The notes under the pieces are model-generated. The model saw only the letters and a list, made by a program, of their open reading frames with translations. It did no database searches and had not been told where the DNA came from. 64,000 bases of DNA from a virus: IMG/VR virus record IMGVR_UViG_3300010286_000195, one strand, 5' to 3'. Made by a program: the position numbers and the translations under genes. Below are positions 15,186 to 54,047 of this stretch, in pieces (the stretch's first letter is position 1; each line of letters begins with the position of its first letter).

Positions 15186-18100
15186 ATATATATAGGTGAT
15201 ATTTATTTACCTATTCTTTCCAAAATTGATAAGAAATCTGTCTCGAAAATAACCAAAGAAATTGCAGGTATTAACGCTAAAGAATCGAGAACTGTTTCTA
15301 TTCGTAGGAATCTGCAACCGATTACTCTTGAAGGTTATCTTTACAATGATGGTGAAAAGGATGATGCACAATACGCAGAAGATGTAGAAGCATTACAGTA
15401 TCGTTCTGCTGGATATTGCTACACGAAATATGCAGACTTAGATGGTTTCATTGAGATTGAAAATGCTGAGGCACCACAAACGTCAGAGGAGTTAGGTGTA
15501 AGGAATTATACAGTGGAAGGAAAGTATCTTCCTGCGAGCAAATATGAGCGTGTAGTGGAAGTGGAAACAGAAATGCGTGGGAATGAATTTAATATAGTGT
15601 TTCCTCCGCATGTTGCTCTTCCTGTGGGGGCTACAAATGTTAGAGTCAAGACTTCGCAGGATAGTGTGAAATTATCTGCACCTGCATTTATGGCAGGAGA
15701 TATACCGATTTATAGACCGTTCCCTGCATTCTATCCTGATGATGTTACACATTCAGCAGGTGATACTCCGAAGTATGATACTACAGCGTATAAGATGTCT
15801 TACAACTTACTTAGTGCAAAGGATGAATCTATTTCTTACACGTTTGTATCGGGTGTGGATGTCCCTCTTGGTTCTTACTGTGTTGTCCTACGCATGAAGA
15901 GTGATGCTACAATCGCATCAGACGCACGTATCGTTGTTTTAAGCGGGGATAATGTTGTAGTTGATAGTTTACATACCCTCGTAGGTGATAATGTCTGGAA
16001 CATAGTAAAATCTGCATCCTTTAATATTACACAGAGAGGTATAACCTACACTATTAAGGTTTCTAAGGTAGAAGCGGATGTTGCCAACCTTGCAGTCAAC
16101 TATGGATTCCTCCTACCTGAAAAGAGAGCGCGTGTTGCATTTGATGTAGCGGCAGAGTATGATGTAGGCGAGTGTAAGGTATTTGATACTATTACTACGG
16201 ATTCTGAAGAGTCTACATGGATACAGGTATTCAATCCTGAGCATGATTTTGCAGGTGACATTGTTGTTCAAAACTCTATGTTCCGGTGGGTAATCAAACA
16301 AACTGCCTGGAAGGATGCAACTAAGGTTTACAACATCTCTGGTAGTGCTCCTGTTGAAATTGGTAAACTGTATAATAAGGCATTTGGTGATGATTCGGTT
16401 GCAATCAAGTTTAAGGAGATTAAACCTAATTACCTGAAATTCACTTTCGAGTTAGACACAGGTAATGCAACATCAGAGTCTACAAGTGCAAAAGAGATTG
16501 ATACTGTTGAGATTACACCATTCAATGTTGTAATTGACAAGGATGTAATTGGTGCTTACAAGGATCATTATACATTCGAGTCTACACCCGATGTAATGAT
16601 AGAATATGAGAATGGTGTCATTGCAGGTATTGACTCAAATAGTATCTACGGTTTGATTAAGTCTGTTAATGTTACGAGCAGTTATGATGGAGATATTATT
16701 GAAACAACGGGTAATGAATCGAGTGATTCTTATGTAGTGCCTTTTGTCATTCCATGTGAAATTACATCTTACTTGTATAAACAGGCAGCAGATTTAGTTA
16801 TTAGCAAGGACAACGGCGATGTCGAGCGCAAGTTCTTCAAGGATGATTTCAGTGTTGATTCCAGCGACAACTATACTGGACACGATGAAACTTCCAAAGG
16901 TTTCTATACATGGGATACTGCAAATAGCAAGTTGGTTTGGCAGGTTACATCAATATCTTCTAATCAGGCTAATATCTACAATCCAATAACGGCAGGACAA
17001 TATGGAATTTCTTCAGTATCGTTTAAGTGTACGGATTACGACGAAACATATGTGCAGACTATCGGTTTGATCGTAGCAAAACGGGGCGATGTTTATGTAG
17101 GAGCCGTTATTCGTCGTGATACTGACGGCAGGAACAGATTCGTGATATTCATGGGCAGTTGGGAGGTACGTGGAGACACTGGATTAACCATCGGAGTTGA
17201 CGTTTTCGATGGTGCGACGTATACCATCACTGTTGAAACAACCCCAACAGGAATTAATGGAAAGGTCTATCGAGAAGGCGTGTATGTGAGAGGATACACT
17301 GTTCCATACGCCGAGTTTAGAATGTATACCCCGCCCACACCCGATGAATTTGTGATCGGATTCGGTTCTCAGATAGGGGCTGCAAAAAATATTACTTGTG
17401 AGGTTTACGACCTGTCGTTTAAACCAACCATATCTTACGCCGACGACTTCTCCACCGATACCACCGAGCGGTATCAGGCAGTTACCGGCACTGTCACGTA
17501 TGACGATACCAACAAGCGGATGAACGTCACCACAGCGACAGGAGCGAATGGAAAAGCATCCGGCAGGTTGAAGTCCTACAAGTTCTGTGAAGGCGCACAA
17601 CAATTTGATGTAACGCTCCCTGTCGGCGCAGACGGGGATTTCATCTGCTTGGTCACTCATGCTACCGATCCTGCAATGACAAATGGTATTGGTGTAGGAT
17701 TACAGTCTGATGGTGCGGGGAACTGGAACCTCGCAACCTTATCTGGAACTACGGTTACTGAAGGGGCACCAAGCGGGTTGACTGATGGCAAGACTGCACG
17801 CATTGAGATTGAGAAGGACAACACAGGAGCGTATTGGTATTATATCTATGATGCTGCTGGACCCAAACCGACAACGGCAACGGGGAAACTCTTCACCACG
17901 TTATCAGAGGGTTACACCGGATGGTATGCTAACGGTAACAGCAAGACCTATGCAATTGAAAATATCTCCATTCGCGCTGAATCCATCGTTGGACGGACGA
18001 ATGTCGAGGTGACCGAGCCGTTCTGGTTCAGGGATGAGTTTGGAGAGGATTCGATTGGTCGCATATCTCGGGCTGGATACAATGGAGTTGGATCTGCATA

Positions 18101-21518: not shown

Positions 21519-21655
21519 AAATCTCTTCAATTCTTTGAGTAAAACAGCATTATTTTGGCATGTTGTTTTGAAGAGGTATATTTACCTGTCTGAGAAAAGA
21601 TAGGGTGCTAAACTCTATAGTTTTGATAGTAAAAAAGGGTAATAATTTGATTCTA
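21519..21655 (-). repeat. dispersed three-block repeat, copy A
   Basis: AATCAAA..CCTATCT..GTTTTACTCAAAGAATTGAAGAGATT blocks on the - strand. Confidence 0.75.
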
Positions 21656-21886
21656 GTATACTATTACACGACCACAAGAATCAAGAGTAAACCCAAGTTC
21701 ATGGTTGATATTAGAGCATGTTATAATCTTACCTGTTTTTTTATCGATGAATAAGATATTACCGCACCATATAGGTTCACCTTTTTCATCAACAAGTTCA
21801 AGGGCAACAGTTTTCTTACCATCCTTGAGGTTGAAGTAAACATTCTCACACTTCTCTTTTTCTGTGTAAATACCTTCAACTGCCAT
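21653..21886 (-). CDS. hypothetical protein, triplicated family copy 3
   Basis: Shares G[IV]Y-E, [KN]KTG and GF-LD--GRV motifs with both neighbours. Confidence 0.75.
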   Translation of the reverse strand: MAVEGIYTEKEKCENVYFNLKDGKKTVALELVDEKGEPIWCGNILFIDKKTGKIITCSNINHELGFTLDSCGRVIVY

Positions 21887-22126
21887 TTACACCACTTTTA
21901 CTCTACCCTTTTCATCAAGTTCAAAACCAATCATGTTGTTTACATCTGGTTCTCTTTTAATCTCACCTGTTTTATTATTAATTGTGCAGATGAAAGGTGC
22001 ATTAATATCAACACCATTTTTATTGACAATTTTGATAATTACTTCATCATCATTCCACTCTTCAAGTTTAAAGTAAAGTCTCTCTTCACTCTTTACTTTC
22101 TCATTATAAACTCCAACAACACCCAT
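21887..22126 (-). CDS. hypothetical protein, triplicated family copy 2
   Basis: Same motifs as above; stop and start codons abut. Confidence 0.75.
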   Translation of the reverse strand: MGVVGVYNEKVKSEERLYFKLEEWNDDEVIIKIVNKNGVDINAPFICTINNKTGEIKREPDVNNMIGFELDEKGRVKVV

Positions 22127-22366
22127 TTATACTACCTTTACTCTTCCCCATAAATCAAGATCAAAACCAATTTTTTCAGAAACACTGTCAAAACGAGTAA
22201 CTACACCTGTTTTCTTACTGATCATAAATATAATTGCAATTTCCTTCCCATCCTGATTGACAACACTAAGAACAACATTGTCACCACAATCAGTCAATTT
22301 AAAGAAGTATTTTTCCTCTTCCTTAATCTTCTCAGCGTTATAAACGCCACAAACCTTGTAACTCAT
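22127..22366 (-). CDS. hypothetical protein, triplicated family copy 1
   Basis: Same motifs as above; TATA-like TTTTTATATAA about 50 nt upstream. Confidence 0.75.
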   Translation of the reverse strand: MSYKVCGVYNAEKIKEEEKYFFKLTDCGDNVVLSVVNQDGKEIAIIFMISKKTGVVTRFDSVSEKIGFDLDLWGRVKVV

Positions 22367-23069: not shown

Positions 23070-23714
23070 TCATAAAAAGTTGAGTGCTTCTAATGTATCT
23101 TTAGGGAGTTTAATCTTTAGTGCATTATTCTTGTAATCAGTAATCAAATCAGAAAGTTTAGGATACGCTTCTAGCAACTTCTGTGCGCGTTTATCACCTA
23201 CTCCAGGTAAGGACAGATAAATATCATAGAGTGGATTTGCACTTGACTTGACTTTCTTGTGCTTGACACTCTCTACTTTCTTACCCTTTCCTACCATTTC
23301 CTTGATTTTGAAAATGGCATGGTATAGTTGAGGTGCGGTATCAAACTGAATCATCTTTACATTATACCTTGCTGCTACAGAACAGAGGGAACCAACCGTA
23401 TGTGTAGTTTTCCATTGTTTAGCGTAAGGGACATAATAAAGACTCTTGAAATTACCGTGTATGAAAAGATACGGTTCATCATATTGTTCAAGGTTAATAA
23501 GTTGAGTTTCCAATCTTCCGTCGCGCACAGAATTGATAAAGTCTGCTACAGATTTACGCTCAATGACAATCTTCTTCTCTCCATCAATAACCCAAGCGTA
23601 ATCACCTGATTCCAAATATTCAAAACGGACTTCGACATTATACGTTTTTGCAATGCGAGCAATCTTATTTTGAACAGTTTTGGGTTCTCTTGTATCTACA
23701 ATTAAGTATTCTAT
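23070..23714 (-). CDS. ERCC4/XPF-family structure-specific nuclease with HhH domain (apparent ATA start)
   Basis: GDY, IERKSVADF and LPGVGDKRA motifs. The conserved IVDTREP lies upstream of the listed TTG start; in-frame TAG-TAA bounds the ORF just upstream. Confidence 0.85.
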   Translation of the reverse strand: MEYLIVDTREPKTVQNKIARIAKTYNVEVRFEYLESGDYAWVIDGEKKIVIERKSVADFINSVRDGRLETQLINLEQYDEPYLFIHGNFKSLYYVPYAKQWKTTHTVGSLCSVAARYNVKMIQFDTAPQLYHAIFKIKEMVGKGKKVESVKHKKVKSSANPLYDIYLSLPGVGDKRAQKLLEAYPKLSDLITDYKNNALKIKLPKDTLEALNFL

Positions 23715-23718
23715 AATA

Positions 23719-24798
23719 TCACCTGTATATTTTTACTAAATGTCTATCTTTCGTGCCATACTCTCTTGTAAAGTCACAGTAACCAGATAGAGGACAATAC
23801 CCATACTGTTTGACAAGTTCACAACGCGGGAAAATAGGTTGGTTGTAAACATCAAATAGTCTATCAAGTTGTCGCTCCTCAACGATGCAATGATACGCTT
23901 CTGTGCGTCCATTGCGTGTGCTTACAAGATATTTCTCTAATATGTCCTTGATCTCACCGTAGAGGAAACCACTATCACGCAGATAGGTAATAAGCAAGTA
24001 GCGCCCTCTAAAACCTACTCGTTTTGTCATACTATTTATCAGTAAGGATGAAATGCATGGTGGAAGAGTTTTGAGTAGAGAATCATGCGAAATCTGCATA
24101 CGAATAGCATCATCATACTCTAATTTATAGTCCTGTGCATCGATTGAAGAGTAGCGATTGATGTAATATTTTCCACCCACATCAAACATTTCCATGTTCA
24201 GGCATTTGTTACCATAAACCGTGTAATCACATGGATGCGGTTGATGTGTGGCCTTACGCTGAATAAACTTCAATCCACGTTCAAGATCATCTGTTGTAAG
24301 AGGAATACAATACCTTCCACGGCGATTGTTGAAAGTTCCAGGGATGGTTGCAACACGCGCAACATCGCCCATAACCTTTTCATCCATCGTAGTCAACTTG
24401 AACTTCCTTACAAAAAATGAATGTGCGCTAAAGAGTGCTGCTTTCTTATTCTTCAATTCCGCGTAATTCTTAGTGAAGAGGTAGAAGTGGAATCCTGCAC
24501 CAGAATATAGCATCAGGTAGCGCATGTCACGCTTATCAAACTCATTTGAGAGTTTTACTGCTTCATCAAATGATTTCTCACCGTCAAGATCAAAGAATAT
24601 CTTATCTACGTTAAGAAATGCATCATCATACACCTCAGAGGACGTATAATTGTAAATGGTAGCAAATACACGCTTGTATGATTTATAGCGATTTATCTGC
24701 TCGTAAAATTCCTCAGAAGTATTTGTTGTAATCCGGTAAGGAATTGCAATTTGACGCGGGAATGAATTGTAAAGCAACTTGTGAATAGTGACGCACAC
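23719..24798 (-). CDS. archaeo-eukaryotic primase, PriS catalytic domain fused to a PriL-CTD-like domain
   Basis: IFFDLD, YSGAGFH and RVATIPGT motifs; C-terminal LPPCI...GRYLL...C...C..C. Confidence 0.8.
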   Translation of the reverse strand: MCVTIHKLLYNSFPRQIAIPYRITTNTSEEFYEQINRYKSYKRVFATIYNYTSSEVYDDAFLNVDKIFFDLDGEKSFDEAVKLSNEFDKRDMRYLMLYSGAGFHFYLFTKNYAELKNKKAALFSAHSFFVRKFKLTTMDEKVMGDVARVATIPGTFNNRRGRYCIPLTTDDLERGLKFIQRKATHQPHPCDYTVYGNKCLNMEMFDVGGKYYINRYSSIDAQDYKLEYDDAIRMQISHDSLLKTLPPCISSLLINSMTKRVGFRGRYLLITYLRDSGFLYGEIKDILEKYLVSTRNGRTEAYHCIVEERQLDRLFDVYNQPIFPRCELVKQYGYCPLSGYCDFTREYGTKDRHLVKIYR

Positions 24799-26107: not shown

Positions 26108-26311
26108 TCACCAACATCCATAGTCTGTAAGATTAATACATTCACCACAATATTCACATTCTGCCATTGTATCAAATCCAATGCCTGTTGTAGTAATATG
26201 TAAGTGAACTGTTAATTCATACTTATTTTCATCAAAACATCGCTCATGACGCTGAATGAATTGATTGAGTTGTACAAGTTCATTCTTGTTAAGTTCTAAC
26301 ATTATCCACAC
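26108..26311 (-). CDS. hypothetical protein with CxxC
   Basis: ORF directly downstream of the RNR gene; CEYC motif. Confidence 0.5.
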   Translation of the reverse strand: MWIMLELNKNELVQLNQFIQRHERCFDENKYELTVHLHITTTGIGFDTMAECEYCGECINLTDYGCW

Positions 26312-29300
26312 CTACTGTATCCACAGGCACACGTAACACAACCTTCAACCATACTCATGCGTTCACCACATTCAGGGCAGATGTTATATTCAGTTGTTAC
26401 TTTCATTTTACGCGAAATAGGTGTTGGTTCTGACTCCTTATCAGGAATCAGACTTTCAATTACTCGCCCGACAACATCAGAGCATGACTTTCCATCACAT
26501 TTACCTTCAGTGAATTTCTTGTAGGCCACAGGACAAGTAACATTACGTAGAGTCTTGATTATATCCCAAGTGGGAACATTCCAACGCATAGAGAGAGAAA
26601 TCATCTGACCAAGTGCATCATTCATAGCGGTGCAACCACCTTTGTTGTTTATAATACACTCATACGGCTTGCCATCCTTCTCTGCAACAGAGATGATTAG
26701 TTTACCACAACCACTACGACGCTTACTGTTGGTTGCAGGAAGATCAGCATCACGCTTTGGTAGGATTCTACCGTTAGTAGGTGTAGGGGTAGATGTTGAT
26801 TCTTTCTTGAGTTCCATAACAATATCATTTCTGCTACCTGTTACGTAAATGGTAACACCCTTACACTTTTTCTCATGAGCGTAAAGAATTGCATTTCTAA
26901 TGTCATCTTTAGTAGCACTTGAAGGCATATTGATAGTCTTACTGATAGCAGCATGACAATACTGCTGAAACGCTGCCTGCATGTCAATGTGTGCCTTCCA
27001 ATCAATGTCTAGTGCAGTTTTGAACACAGATTTAAATTCAGTAGGCAACCATGTAATATCCTGAATAGTTCCTGTTTCGTAAGCGTGATTAATTACTTCC
27101 TGCTTTTTCTTATCCCACTGTGAAAATTCATAATGAGTTTCAATATACTCATCCAACTTTTCTTCAAAGACCGGATCAACTATTAGGTATCCTTTCTTTT
27201 CGCCATCTACCCATGTGTAACGCTTATGCACTAGGGAATATACAGGTTCAATACCATATGAGGTTTCAGAGAGTGTTGCAATACTTCCAGTGGGTGCTAT
27301 GCACGTTGTAGTAGCATTACGCATTGGAATATCTTGTAGGAACCATTGAGAACCCTCATAAGCGGGGAATGTGCCAAGTTCTTTTGCAAGTTTACGTGAA
27401 GTAGCGACAGAGAATTCATCAAGAATACTCATGACTAATTTTGCCTGATACAATGCATAAGAACTATCGTAAGGAATACCCATCTTCATAAGCATGTGAT
27501 GGAATCCCATGTAACCTAATCCAATCTTACGAGTCTTTCTACTCGCGCCTGCAATCTCTTCAATAGGATATTTATTGAGATCAATAATTTTATCGAGAAA
27601 TTCAGTTGCCTGTTCAATAGTATTAATCAATCTTGGGGTATCAAGTTTATTATTATCAATAAAGTTAGATAAATTTATACTGCCTAGATTACAAGACTCT
27701 CCTGGTAGTAGTGGTTGCTCTCCGCAATTCGAGGCTATTACGCCGTTGAAAATGCCAGTGTGATTCTTAGGTTCGTTGAAACAGTAAACCTTGTCTACAA
27801 TTTCATTATTTTTTGTAATTGAAACAACACTAATAAATCTTTTTGCACTTCTATTGCAATTAACATCAATAGGAACTCTATGCGTTTTGAGTCCAAGTTC
27901 TTTAAGTTTTGCTACATCGGATGCAGCAATCACAATTCTATATGATTCAAGACATTCATACTCTTTTTGACCGCCATTTCCATCAGGCATTAATTTTGAA
28001 CCTGCTAAACGCATAATATTAACAGATGTATTAATTCCAAGTGTGTTAAGCATATATTTTATCTTCATCAGGAAGTCTTTATCAACCGATGAAATAGTAA
28101 TACTGCCTTCACTTGAATTTCTACTTCCATCACTATCAATGATACCTGCTAACCAATCTAATCTTGATCTGATTGTGTATTCACAACCAGGAACAAATAC
28201 TTTGTCATAATCACCATCAAGGATAGCCAAAATTCTTCTATCACTATTTGGATTAATATATACTTTTTTTGCCTTTATATACTTTAAAAGTTCTTTCTTA
28301 CCATCATATAACCAAATCTGATATTGATTACTTGCTGTATGATAACAACCATCACCACTGTAAAAGCCATGTGTATAAGCATTCTCAAGTTCTTTAATAC
28401 CCTCAATAACAGGGTAATCACACTTGATAAGTTTGTCACCCACAACTAAATCTTTTGCCTCTTTTTTAACAATCTTACATCCATTACTTTTGTAACAATC
28501 TTGTAAGATAAACTTATGATAAGGAGTGCATTTTACTTTATTACCATCGCTAAATGTTACTTCCATTACCTCTTGATTAAAACCAGTAACGCAAGGTGTA
28601 ACAACACTCCACTCAAACCCATTCCAAATAGTAGTTTCCTTTCCTACGCACTCATCAATGCGCTTATATCCTTCATTGGTAAGAACCAATGTATCACCTG
28701 TAACACAGGGATTGGTTGCTTCAATATTACCAAGATGTTTGCAAGTATTATCATCATTAATTGTATTGTAAAACAGAATCCCAGGCTCACCATTGAGCAT
28801 TATTCCTTCAATAATCTTATCAAATAATTCTTTTGCTCTGACTGTTTTGTAAATCTTGCCCTCAAAGTGAAGGTTATATTCTTTATCATTTTTTACTGCA
28901 TTAATAAAATCATCATCAATCATTACAGAGATGTTAAAGTTAGAAAGATCACCTTCAGTATTCTTACATGTAATGAACTTCTCAATGTCAGGATGCCATA
29001 TTGGAAGAATACCCATATTGGCACCTCTTCTTCTTCCACCTTGTTTTACTGCTTCAGTAGCAGCATTAAATACTTTCATGAAAGAAATAGGGCCGGATGC
29101 AACACCATCTGTTCCATTTACTCTATCACCTTCAGGTCGAAGATTACCAAAAGAAAAACCTGTGCCTCCACCCGTCTTATGAATCAATGCAGCATTTTTA
29201 ATTGTAGTAAAAATACTTTCCATAGAATCATAGATTGGCAGAACAAAACATGCAGAAAGTTGTCCTAAATTAGTTCCCGCATTCATAAGGGTAGGCGAAT

Positions 29301-29469
29301 TAGGCACAAAATCCTTATTCACCATCATGTCGTAATAGATTTCCCTCTCATCATCCGTATTTCCTACGTAGTCTGCAACTCTTCTACAAACATCTTCCCA
29401 GGATGATTCTCCTTCACGGAAATAACGAGCAGCAAGAACTTCATTAACAATCTCACTCATAGTAATCAC
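26302..29469 (-). CDS. nrdJ: class II (B12-dependent) ribonucleotide reductase, intein-interrupted
   Basis: PNSPTLMNAG, LSACFV, GGGTG, NPC/GEQPL, IAPTGS motifs; C-terminal TSCPD-like domain and zinc ribbon. Confidence 0.92.
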   Translation of the reverse strand: MITMSEIVNEVLAARYFREGESSWEDVCRRVADYVGNTDDEREIYYDMMVNKDFVPNSPTLMNAGTNLGQLSACFVLPIYDSMESIFTTIKNAALIHKTGGGTGFSFGNLRPEGDRVNGTDGVASGPISFMKVFNAATEAVKQGGRRRGANMGILPIWHPDIEKFITCKNTEGDLSNFNISVMIDDDFINAVKNDKEYNLHFEGKIYKTVRAKELFDKIIEGIMLNGEPGILFYNTINDDNTCKHLGNIEATNPCVTGDTLVLTNEGYKRIDECVGKETTIWNGFEWSVVTPCVTGFNQEVMEVTFSDGNKVKCTPYHKFILQDCYKSNGCKIVKKEAKDLVVGDKLIKCDYPVIEGIKELENAYTHGFYSGDGCYHTASNQYQIWLYDGKKELLKYIKAKKVYINPNSDRRILAILDGDYDKVFVPGCEYTIRSRLDWLAGIIDSDGSRNSSEGSITISSVDKDFLMKIKYMLNTLGINTSVNIMRLAGSKLMPDGNGGQKEYECLESYRIVIAASDVAKLKELGLKTHRVPIDVNCNRSAKRFISVVSITKNNEIVDKVYCFNEPKNHTGIFNGVIASNCGEQPLLPGESCNLGSINLSNFIDNNKLDTPRLINTIEQATEFLDKIIDLNKYPIEEIAGASRKTRKIGLGYMGFHHMLMKMGIPYDSSYALYQAKLVMSILDEFSVATSRKLAKELGTFPAYEGSQWFLQDIPMRNATTTCIAPTGSIATLSETSYGIEPVYSLVHKRYTWVDGEKKGYLIVDPVFEEKLDEYIETHYEFSQWDKKKQEVINHAYETGTIQDITWLPTEFKSVFKTALDIDWKAHIDMQAAFQQYCHAAISKTINMPSSATKDDIRNAILYAHEKKCKGVTIYVTGSRNDIVMELKKESTSTPTPTNGRILPKRDADLPATNSKRRSGCGKLIISVAEKDGKPYECIINNKGGCTAMNDALGQMISLSMRWNVPTWDIIKTLRNVTCPVAYKKFTEGKCDGKSCSDVVGRVIESLIPDKESEPTPISRKMKVTTEYNICPECGERMSMVEGCVTCACGYSRCG
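27727..28707 (-). mobile_element. intein (327 aa) with LAGLIDADG homing endonuclease
   Basis: Splits NP|CGEQ; starts CVTGDTLV and ends GVIASN before Cys; contains HGFYSGDG and LAGIIDSDG blocks. Confidence 0.92.
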
Positions 29470-44659: not shown

Positions 44660-46135
44660 TTAGTGACTCCTATTAACTCCAATCATAAATTTACGTTTCT
44701 TCCGAGTTCCTTTATCAACCAACGCAGAACCCTTATTAATCGTCATTCTTACGAGTCCTTCGAGTGCATCAGGAGCATCATCATGTTTGTGAACCGGATA
44801 TCGCACTAATTGATTAATCAGTTCAGGATACGCTTCAATCCAATCATCCCGGAACAAAACTTTACCCGAAGTAATAAACGGTTCAACAGATTCAATACGA
44901 ATTCGTTTCTTCTTCTGATTCTTAATTTCTTTAATTTTCATGCGCTTACGCATATCTTTGATTTTATCATTGCGTTCTTTAAGATATTGAGAAATAAGAC
45001 TCTGGAAACCGTTTGTTTCGATTCCAAGTTCTTCACAATTATAAAAGTTGTAATAATACACCATCTTTTCAATAGAAACATTTGGCGGTGATGTATTACT
45101 TAACCAACAATCACGCACGTAAAGAACATGGTCTTTGATTGCACCTACTATAATAACGCAAAAATCATTCTCATTACCAAGTGCAGGATCAACATAGATA
45201 ACATGCTTACAATCTTTGAAAAAAGGATTTTGTGCACGTTCTTGTGGACGTTTCAATTCAGTATAAAAGTGCATATTTTCTATGTTAAACAACTGTGTTT
45301 CTGATGGTAATGGTTGATTTAAATACTGACTTGAAAACTCTACTGCACCCTTCTCAATACGTAACGCCTGGATTTTATTTTCATCATAAATTGTAGGATA
45401 CTTTGGTTTACCATGTTCATCTATGATGGAATCAATCTCAATGTCATAACGCATAAAATCAGGCAATTTTGGATTTTGCTCAATAATTTCGCCATATAAC
45501 TCATCGTCATGCCAACGAGTTCCTATGATCATCAGTAGTCCATCAGGTTCAAGAATTGAGATTAAATCCTTATACCAACGCTTCTTCTGCTCACGAATAG
45601 CAGCAGATTCACGGTCTGCGTCATTTACAATGTCATCGCAGATAATAATATCATAGTGCTCTGATGTCATCGCTGAAAGAGCACCACGCGCCTTAAGATT
45701 TGGTTCCTTCTTTACAACGCGCGGATGTAAGACTACTTCCTGCTGATTCAATTTAATAATAGGATTATCATTACCAAAATCAGCAAAGAACTGTTTTATA
45801 TTTTCATTCTCTGTAAGATGCTGTGTAATCTCGTAAAGAATCTGCTCTGCTAAGTCATTGGTAGCAGATGTAATCAAAATACGTAAGGTAAACTTTCCAT
45901 CATGCTTCACGTAATCATCAAGCAGACGATCAATAACAAAAGAAACATCATAAATAGTAGTTTTATAAGTTCCACGCGGTTTCAGGCGCATGATACGTTT
46001 GTGAGTCTTGATTGCTTTTTCTAGGTCATCGCACCACTCTTTATGAACATCCTTAGTTATTTTCTCGTAACCAAGCATGTATTTTGCAATGTTATAAAGA
46101 GTGAGACGTTTACCATGATAAATGATATTAGACAT
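44660..46135 (-). CDS. terL: terminase large subunit
   Basis: PRGTYKTT, IICDD, IGTRWH..D, YVDPA and HDDAPDAL motifs. Confidence 0.93.
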   Translation of the reverse strand: MSNIIYHGKRLTLYNIAKYMLGYEKITKDVHKEWCDDLEKAIKTHKRIMRLKPRGTYKTTIYDVSFVIDRLLDDYVKHDGKFTLRILITSATNDLAEQILYEITQHLTENENIKQFFADFGNDNPIIKLNQQEVVLHPRVVKKEPNLKARGALSAMTSEHYDIIICDDIVNDADRESAAIREQKKRWYKDLISILEPDGLLMIIGTRWHDDELYGEIIEQNPKLPDFMRYDIEIDSIIDEHGKPKYPTIYDENKIQALRIEKGAVEFSSQYLNQPLPSETQLFNIENMHFYTELKRPQERAQNPFFKDCKHVIYVDPALGNENDFCVIIVGAIKDHVLYVRDCWLSNTSPPNVSIEKMVYYYNFYNCEELGIETNGFQSLISQYLKERNDKIKDMRKRMKIKEIKNQKKKRIRIESVEPFITSGKVLFRDDWIEAYPELINQLVRYPVHKHDDAPDALEGLVRMTINKGSALVDKGTRKKRKFMIGVNRSH

Positions 46136-53627: not shown

Positions 53628-54047
53628 ATGGAGTTTTCAGACTTGCTTAAAAAGTTGTGGCATTCTTCATATGTATGTGCTCTTTCAGAACCAAAAGTGC
53701 ATGTATTTGTGGGAAATACGCGCCACATAAGCGTATCACCATTTTTTAATTCAAATTGTGATATAGGGTTTGAAGAGGAAAAAGCACTGTTGCAAGGTAA
53801 GTTGCGTAAGATTAATGTAAATCTTTTCAAAAATTTTCATTTGCTTTGCTTTACGGAATTGGAGACTATTCCGAAGTTTAAAGCGGGAAAGGTGATAATT
53901 ATTAACGAGTATGGAGATTTTGTGAATGAGATTCATGTAAGAAATATCCAAAAAATTATTAATGCTAATCCGTTAACGATTTTTAAGGTGAAAACGAGGT
54001 TAGATGTTGTTTTGAAGGGTAATAATGTAAGGATGATAAAGAAATGA
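53628..54047 (+). CDS. hypothetical protein
   Basis: ORF in operon with GGTGA RBS. Confidence 0.55.
   Translation: MEFSDLLKKLWHSSYVCALSEPKVHVFVGNTRHISVSPFFNSNCDIGFEEEKALLQGKLRKINVNLFKNFHLLCFTELETIPKFKAGKVIIINEYGDFVNEIHVRNIQKIINANPLTIFKVKTRLDVVLKGNNVRMIKK

Follow-up and report, generated by a model that had tools for sequence, protein, structure and literature searches.

A conserved ATA codon behind a Shine-Dalgarno sequence as the likely start of an ERCC4-type nuclease gene in a tailed virus with a probable archaeal host

The 64,000-nucleotide stretch of DNA analysed here (hereafter the window) makes up nearly all of the 64.7-kb IMG/VR virus record IMGVR_UViG_3300010286_000195, which is rated 93% complete. 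On its minus strand, a primase-like open reading frame (ORF) ending in ...AAA ATA TAC AGG TGA is followed, in the +1 frame, by a gene for a predicted nuclease of the ERCC4 family whose start is the subject of this report. Read in the nuclease frame, the junction is TAG (23738-36) TAA (23735-33) AAA TAT ACA GGT GAT ATT (23717-15) ATA (23714-12) GAA TAC TTA ATT GTA GAT ACA AGA GAA CCC, as it had been written in an earlier reading of this DNA made without database searches (the sequence-only reading). The earliest ATG, GTG or TTG in this frame is TTG 23615, 39 codons past the TAG TAA double stop, and position 1 of the Pfam ERCC4 profile (PF02732) falls on the valine of the VDTRE motif, at 23699. 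Sequence and profile agree with the earlier contention that the start of the nuclease has to lie after the double stop and before VDTRE, an interval of the window that holds no canonical initiation codon. The features discussed below are collected in Table 1.

Profile, catalytic signature and fold all place the encoded protein in the ERCC4 / XPF-Mus81-Hef family, and it is accordingly predicted to be a nuclease. The PF02732 match scores 69.5 bits against a cut-off of 24 (E 3.7e-19; profile positions 1-132 of 140), and the translation carries the motifs IVDTRE (residues 5-10), SGDY (36-39) and IERKSVAD (51-58), which align with VDVRE, GDY and ERK of Aeropyrum XPF. Sequence matches include Aeropyrum pernix XPF (2bgw/2bhn), Hef of Pyrococcus (1j22) and human XPF, the last beginning at residue 685 of the human protein, just ahead of the acidic residues with which the nuclease motif (VDxRE) opens and which we take to be catalytic. 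An AlphaFold2 model (mean predicted local distance difference test score 84, and 92-94 over the first 40 residues) predicts a restriction-endonuclease-like alpha/beta domain followed by a helix-hairpin-helix, the Pfam matches to the latter being by themselves below threshold. The best Foldseek matches of this model are 2bhn/2bgw (E 1e-11), Mus81, Hef 1j24 (template modelling score 0.83 on target) and XPF. Strand 1 is modelled at residues 3-7, helix 1 at 12-24 and strand 2 at 28-32; a product begun at TTG 23615 (Leu34) would lose all three elements, including the acidic residues of VDxRE, and on the model the N-terminal segment is structurally required.

The junction was compared between the window and ten IMG/VR contigs from ten other metagenomes, all eleven gene sequences being distinct; the relatives are 89-98% identical to the window gene at the nucleotide level and 93-99% at the protein level. 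The TAG TAA double stop, the AGGTGAT motif and the ATA at 23714-23712 are invariant in all eleven, and an ATG stands in place of the ATA in none of the ten relatives, which supports the earlier choice of this ATA, behind AGGTGAT, as the best candidate for the start. Since ten contigs from other metagenomes have the same arrangement, a read or assembly error at this site, already doubted in the sequence-only reading, is ruled out by the agreement of eleven independent assemblies. The stretch from the stops to VDTRE is devoid of ATG, GTG and TTG in nine of the eleven sequences (the window and eight of ten relatives), the other two having a TTG at codon 4. A pattern scan of IMG/VR in which the six bases following AGGTGAT were left free returned only the same ten contigs, none of them with an ATG. 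The triplet separating AGGTGAT from the ATA (23717-23715) is ATT in four sequences, AAC in four and ACC in three, which would encode Ile, Asn or Thr, and it is the most variable triplet of the 161-column alignment; judged from the alignment, this is the behaviour of an untranslated spacer. ATT 23717 had also been entertained as a start and was rejected, seven of the ten relatives reading AAC or ACC at this position and the spacing to the Shine-Dalgarno sequence being zero.

The ratio of nonsynonymous to synonymous polymorphism (pN/pS) locates the change of reading frame. Over the last 27 codons of the primase-like gene it is 0.20 when these are read as primase and 3.05 when they are read in the ERCC4 frame. 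Over ERCC4 codons 2-33, from the ATA to TTG 23615, it is 0.21 in the ERCC4 frame as opposed to 2.9 and 1.7 in the other two frames, with third positions accounting for nine of the 12 variable sites, and over codons 34-214 it is 0.11. These frame-specific values imply that translation switches frame inside a 10-nt stretch comprising the TGA, the spacer and the ATA. Evolution is coding-like downstream of the ATA and not upstream of it in the ERCC4 frame, the pattern by which a near-cognate start is recognized. Extension of the gene upstream through recoded stops was considered and rejected: TAG and TAA would both have to be read through, into a region whose pN/pS in the ERCC4 frame is the 3.05 given above.

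Table 1. Positions of the features at the nuclease start and of the second ATA site in the window.
Feature	Position	Strand	Remarks
ERCC4/XPF-type nuclease gene (predicted), re-delimited	23070..23714	-	214 codons, from ATA 23714 to stop TGA 23072-23070
Proposed initiation codon ATA	23712..23714	-	invariant in 11/11, never ATG; selected coding frame switches here
Spacer triplet, apparently untranslated	23715..23717	-	ATT in the window; AAC or ACC in relatives
Shine-Dalgarno sequence AGGTGAT	23718..23724	-	holds the primase stop; invariant in 11/11; precedes many ATG genes of the window
Stop TGA of the primase-like gene	23719..23721	-	inside AGGTGAT, 4 nt before ATA 23714
TAG TAA double stop closing the ERCC4 frame upstream	23733..23738	-	invariant in 11/11
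TTG (Leu34), false start picked by gene callers	23613..23615	-	181-amino acid truncated product
Upstream primase-like gene	23719..24798	-	359 amino acids as listed; position matches PhiF1 ORF55
ATA at the start of a 1501-codon tail gene	15186..15188	+	7/7 relatives read ATG

The ATA follows AGGTGAT at a distance of 3 nt, and the ATG genes of the window begin 3-5 nt after GGTGAT (for example GGTGAT ACA ATG at 53628). Apart from this ATA, the interval from the double stop to VDTRE contains a single invariant near-cognate codon, ATT 23702, which is 15 nt from GGTGAT. We consider it likely that the AUA, which a 7-nt Shine-Dalgarno sequence precedes by 3 nt, is where the nuclease is initiated, probably with the help of primase termination 4 nt upstream and with a low output of nuclease. 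AGGUGAU, lying in the last codons of the primase-like gene, would hold the small ribosomal subunit so as to place AUA 23714 in the P site, where initiator tRNA would pair with it through a third-position mismatch and insert methionine, yielding a product of 214 residues that begins (M)EYLIVDTRE. Ribosomes terminating at the primase stop probably feed this initiation by termination-reinitiation, a coupling made plausible by the mere 4 nt between stop and start (TGA 23719 to ATA 23714); in archaea and bacteria, termination-reinitiation is described for overlaps or very short distances only (PMC10666635). The weak codon would keep a structure-specific and potentially harmful nuclease scarce and would tie it to translation of the primase. 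AUA supports initiation at 1-2% of the AUG level in Escherichia coli (10.1101/063800), and the conserved AUA starts of infC, ccpN and citZ in Staphylococcus aureus, which have extended Shine-Dalgarno motifs, reach 10-30% of AUG (PMC13009471). As to other possible aids to initiation, no virus-encoded tRNA able to read AUA at this step was found in the window, and only a weak local RNA fold that might present the start was predicted (-13.3 kcal/mol, z = -2.07).

No separate start would be needed if ribosomes made a programmed +1 frameshift at the A5 run in GTA AAA ATA (23736-23728), slipping from AAA to the overlapping AAA and continuing through TAT ACA GGT GAT ATT ATA to produce a primase-nuclease fusion. 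The two frames stand in the required +1 relation, and the A5 run is invariant and lies within 12 nt that are open in both frames. The codons that would form the linker of such a fusion, however, are not under protein selection: an ACA/ATA difference among them alters the amino acid in the ERCC4 frame and leaves that of the primase frame unchanged, and one of them would be the ATT/AAC/ACC triplet, the most variable of the region. Further, the next codon in the primase frame, ATA, is not rare (16 per 1000 codons), so that no hungry codon would stimulate the slip; the 51%-identical homologue on contig L035 lacks a comparable slippery run; a search among longer proteins revealed no fused primase-ERCC4 homologue, which is weak evidence; and a complete Shine-Dalgarno sequence at the spacing of a start site is better explained by initiation. 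We regard the frameshift as very improbable.

Initiation might also occur slightly downstream of the ATA, either at ATT 23702 (Ile5), which is invariant and near-cognate, or at the codon-4 TTG of the two relatives that have it (L006 and L007), making the protein 3-4 residues shorter; in its favour, no more than two residues separate the Met of the homologue P0005 from IDSRE. We deem this unlikely, as these codons lie 12-15 nt after GGTGAT (12 nt for the TTG), outside the 3-5 nt of canonical genes, the TTG is missing from nine of the eleven sequences, and codons 2-4 (GAA TAY TTR) vary mainly at their third positions, as if translated. A start at TTG 23615 is the choice of gene callers in nearly all 275 sequences of the public cluster described below, and would imply a functional 181-amino acid product, as publicly annotated, or else a gene in decay after the loss of its start. 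A functional product lacking VDxRE had been named in the sequence-only reading as a finding that would overturn initiation at the ATA; the purifying selection acting on codons 2-33 in the ERCC4 frame speaks against it, as do the loss of the first three structural elements with the VDxRE acidic residues and the sequence upstream of this TTG, TTTTGAATAT, which contains no Shine-Dalgarno sequence. Decay is at odds with a gene that is intact throughout, with pN/pS 0.11, in 11 lineages 89-98% identical. We see very little chance that either version is correct.

Distant homologues start with Met plus 2-3 residues before (I/V)(I/V)DxRE, and initiation at the ATA would give an N-terminus of equal length; on two IMG/VR contigs, such homologues begin AAGGAGG...ATG GAA GTA GTT ATC GAC. 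Methanobacterium virus PhiF1 (MK994522, L037) has the same gene order as the window, namely a PD-(D/E)XK nuclease, ORF55 at the position of the primase and the ERCC4 gene, ORF54. ORF55 ends ...ATA TAC TGG TGA inside GGTGAT, followed by GTA ATA, such that both viruses have an upstream gene ending ...ATATAC-NGG-TGA within GGTGAT and then NNN ATA. The PhiF1 ERCC4 gene overlaps ORF55 by 23 nt (L037 2977-3010), and this overlap and the closed-off upstream stretch of the window have ATATAC-NGG-TGA-T and the residues Y-T-G-D in common. Unlike the window clade, PhiF1 retains in-frame ATGs 23 and 17 nt upstream of the stop, annotated as the start, whereas the corresponding stretch in the window clade is closed by TAG TAA. 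These comparisons suggest that an ancestral overlapping ATG start may have been lost in the window clade. A metagenome scan for intermediate homologues recovered a single contig, L035, which encodes P0004. Its start is ambiguous, the called GTG lying inside the Shine-Dalgarno sequence GAGGTGA and an ATA following 5 nt later. We note that on this contig (Ga0255347_1048075) a one-base deletion in a T run at 530-545, relative to P0004, splits the ERCC4 homologue into two frames, an assembly error or a broken copy being the probable explanation.

A number of observations weigh against initiation at the AUA, or against its being selected. Codon 4, 9 nt past the ATA, has become a canonical start codon in L006 and L007 through a synonymous change from TTA to TTG, and has been taken as the start in one public gene call (P0021, 211 amino acids). 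Only 27-42% of third codon positions vary in the relatives, so that an ordinary Ile codon would often be invariant as well, and the invariance of the ATA in the alignment is for this reason not by itself statistically strong. The sister clade (P0003-P0005, 47-55% identity), whose members have N-terminal extensions starting with M or V, appears to use ATG or GTG; judging from the sequences, the window clade seems to have acquired its ATA secondarily, and this state could be neutral rather than selected. A review of archaeal initiation names AUG, GUG and UUG only (PMC7531240), the archaeal host being itself deduced, and our literature search for AUA starts in archaea, their viruses or phages returned nothing relevant; ribosome profiling in Haloferax did detect near-cognate candidate start sites, which were not pursued there (PMC7261190). 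Finally, the proposed use of the AUA is drawn from sequence and a structure model. With these points in mind, our broader proposal, that the AUA is a selected, functional start in an archaeal virus, aided by the Shine-Dalgarno sequence and termination-reinitiation and serving a low, primase-linked dose of nuclease, is offered as tentative.

The sequence-only reading had paired the ERCC4 start with a second ATA and taken the two as a sign of regular AUA initiation in this genome. When the entire window was scanned for long ORFs that lack a canonical start and open with a near-cognate codon behind a Shine-Dalgarno motif, two sites only were returned, 23714 and 15186. The ATA at 15186, at the head of the tail gene, is however private to the window genome, all seven relatives reading ATG there, and is either a mutation or an assembly error. 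One site being private and the other conserved, the two cases are of different kinds and neither strengthens the other, and the notion of regular AUA initiation could not be upheld.

Start-codon choice sets protein dose, and conserved AUA or AUU starts are rare. Documented conserved cases, such as those of infC and ccpN, are regulatory; infC of E. coli starts at AUU. Like infC (AUA), ccpN (AUA) and cvfC1 (AUU) of S. aureus (PMC13009471), the viral ERCC4 gene combines a conserved near-cognate AUN codon with a long, strong Shine-Dalgarno sequence at short spacing. Translation from the S. aureus starts is attenuated by measurement, to the 10-30% of AUG quoted above, whereas attenuation is what we would expect of the viral gene. 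The latter further differs from these Firmicutes cases in being a viral gene with archaeal-virus relatives, known from sequence, whose start comes 4 nt after an upstream stop; and no IF3-type autoregulatory logic, as in infC, is evident at the viral locus. With the coupled gene pairs of archaea and bacteria (Huber et al., PMC6728339, PMC10666635) it shares a unidirectional arrangement with a very short stop-start distance, here +4 nt, the 3' end of the first gene containing a Shine-Dalgarno sequence. Those pairs typically have 4-nt or 1-nt overlaps and AUG or GUG starts, whereas the viral locus has an AUA and a coupling that we infer. The protein itself resembles A. pernix XPF (2BGW/2BHN) and the Hef nuclease domain (1J22) in holding an ERCC4 nuclease and a helix-hairpin-helix within about 215 residues, with VDxRE, GDY and ERKxxxD present as in archaeal XPF/Hef, its best sequence and fold matches; unlike these, it is virus-encoded, only 22-25% identical and active by prediction. 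The ERCC4 start would belong to a known kind, the conserved near-cognate start with an extended Shine-Dalgarno sequence, here in an unusual setting, and it has led to a widespread annotation error.

Standard gene callers consider ATG, GTG and TTG only. The window nuclease falls in a public 90%-identity cluster of 275 sequences, nearly all of which are called at 181 amino acids from TTG 23615, an indirect indication that the whole clade lacks a canonical start further upstream. Public entries of this group (P0002, P0012-P0025), some of them named 'ERCC4-type nuclease', include 181-amino acid calls without the first 33 residues and hence without VDxRE. As such truncated entries lack strand 1 and two presumably catalytic acidic residues, function predictions and structure models derived from them would be wrong.

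The window encodes an HK97-type capsid protein, a tail tube protein and a large terminase, indicative of a tailed virus, together with a family-B DNA polymerase, an RFC-like clamp loader, thymidylate synthase and kinase, a PD-(D/E)XK nuclease, the primase-like gene and the ERCC4 nuclease as replication genes. The primase-like gene gives a weak Pfam DNA_primase_S match (18.1 bits, below cut-off). Among 50,697 phage records, the large terminase (44663-46135, minus strand) has a sole strong match, to that of ANMV-1, which infects an uncultured ANME-type archaeon (33% identity, E 2e-74), the next matches being at E about 1e-12; that ANMV-1 is its only close relative supports an archaeal host. The only homologue of the ERCC4 protein in the phage collection is that of PhiF1 (28% identity). 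A scan of genome contigs for a provirus in a named host returned only a distant Desulfurococcaceae match. Several of these results agree on an archaeal host, each of them short of decisive, and from sequence comparison we consider such a host probable.

Two other regions of the minus strand may be mentioned. Three tandem genes at 21653-22366 encode clearly paralogous small proteins of 77-79 amino acids that start M..(V/E)G(V/I)Y.EK and end GRV(K/I)V(V/Y). A ribonucleotide reductase-like ORF of 1055 amino acids (26302-29469) has an apparent intein-like insertion, judged from the translation alone, which begins ...NPCVTGDTLV and ends ...VIASNCGEQ.

If initiation at the AUA is borne out and the virus is archaeal, no earlier conserved AUA start would have been described for Archaea or their viruses, and its presence in a widespread archaeal virus lineage would extend the known repertoire of initiation. 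In that event, the replacement of ATG by ATA that is private to the largest tail gene of the window genome would hint at a host unusually tolerant of AUA initiation. The start of the viral ERCC4 gene would also offer a natural test case for near-cognate initiation and termination-reinitiation in archaea.

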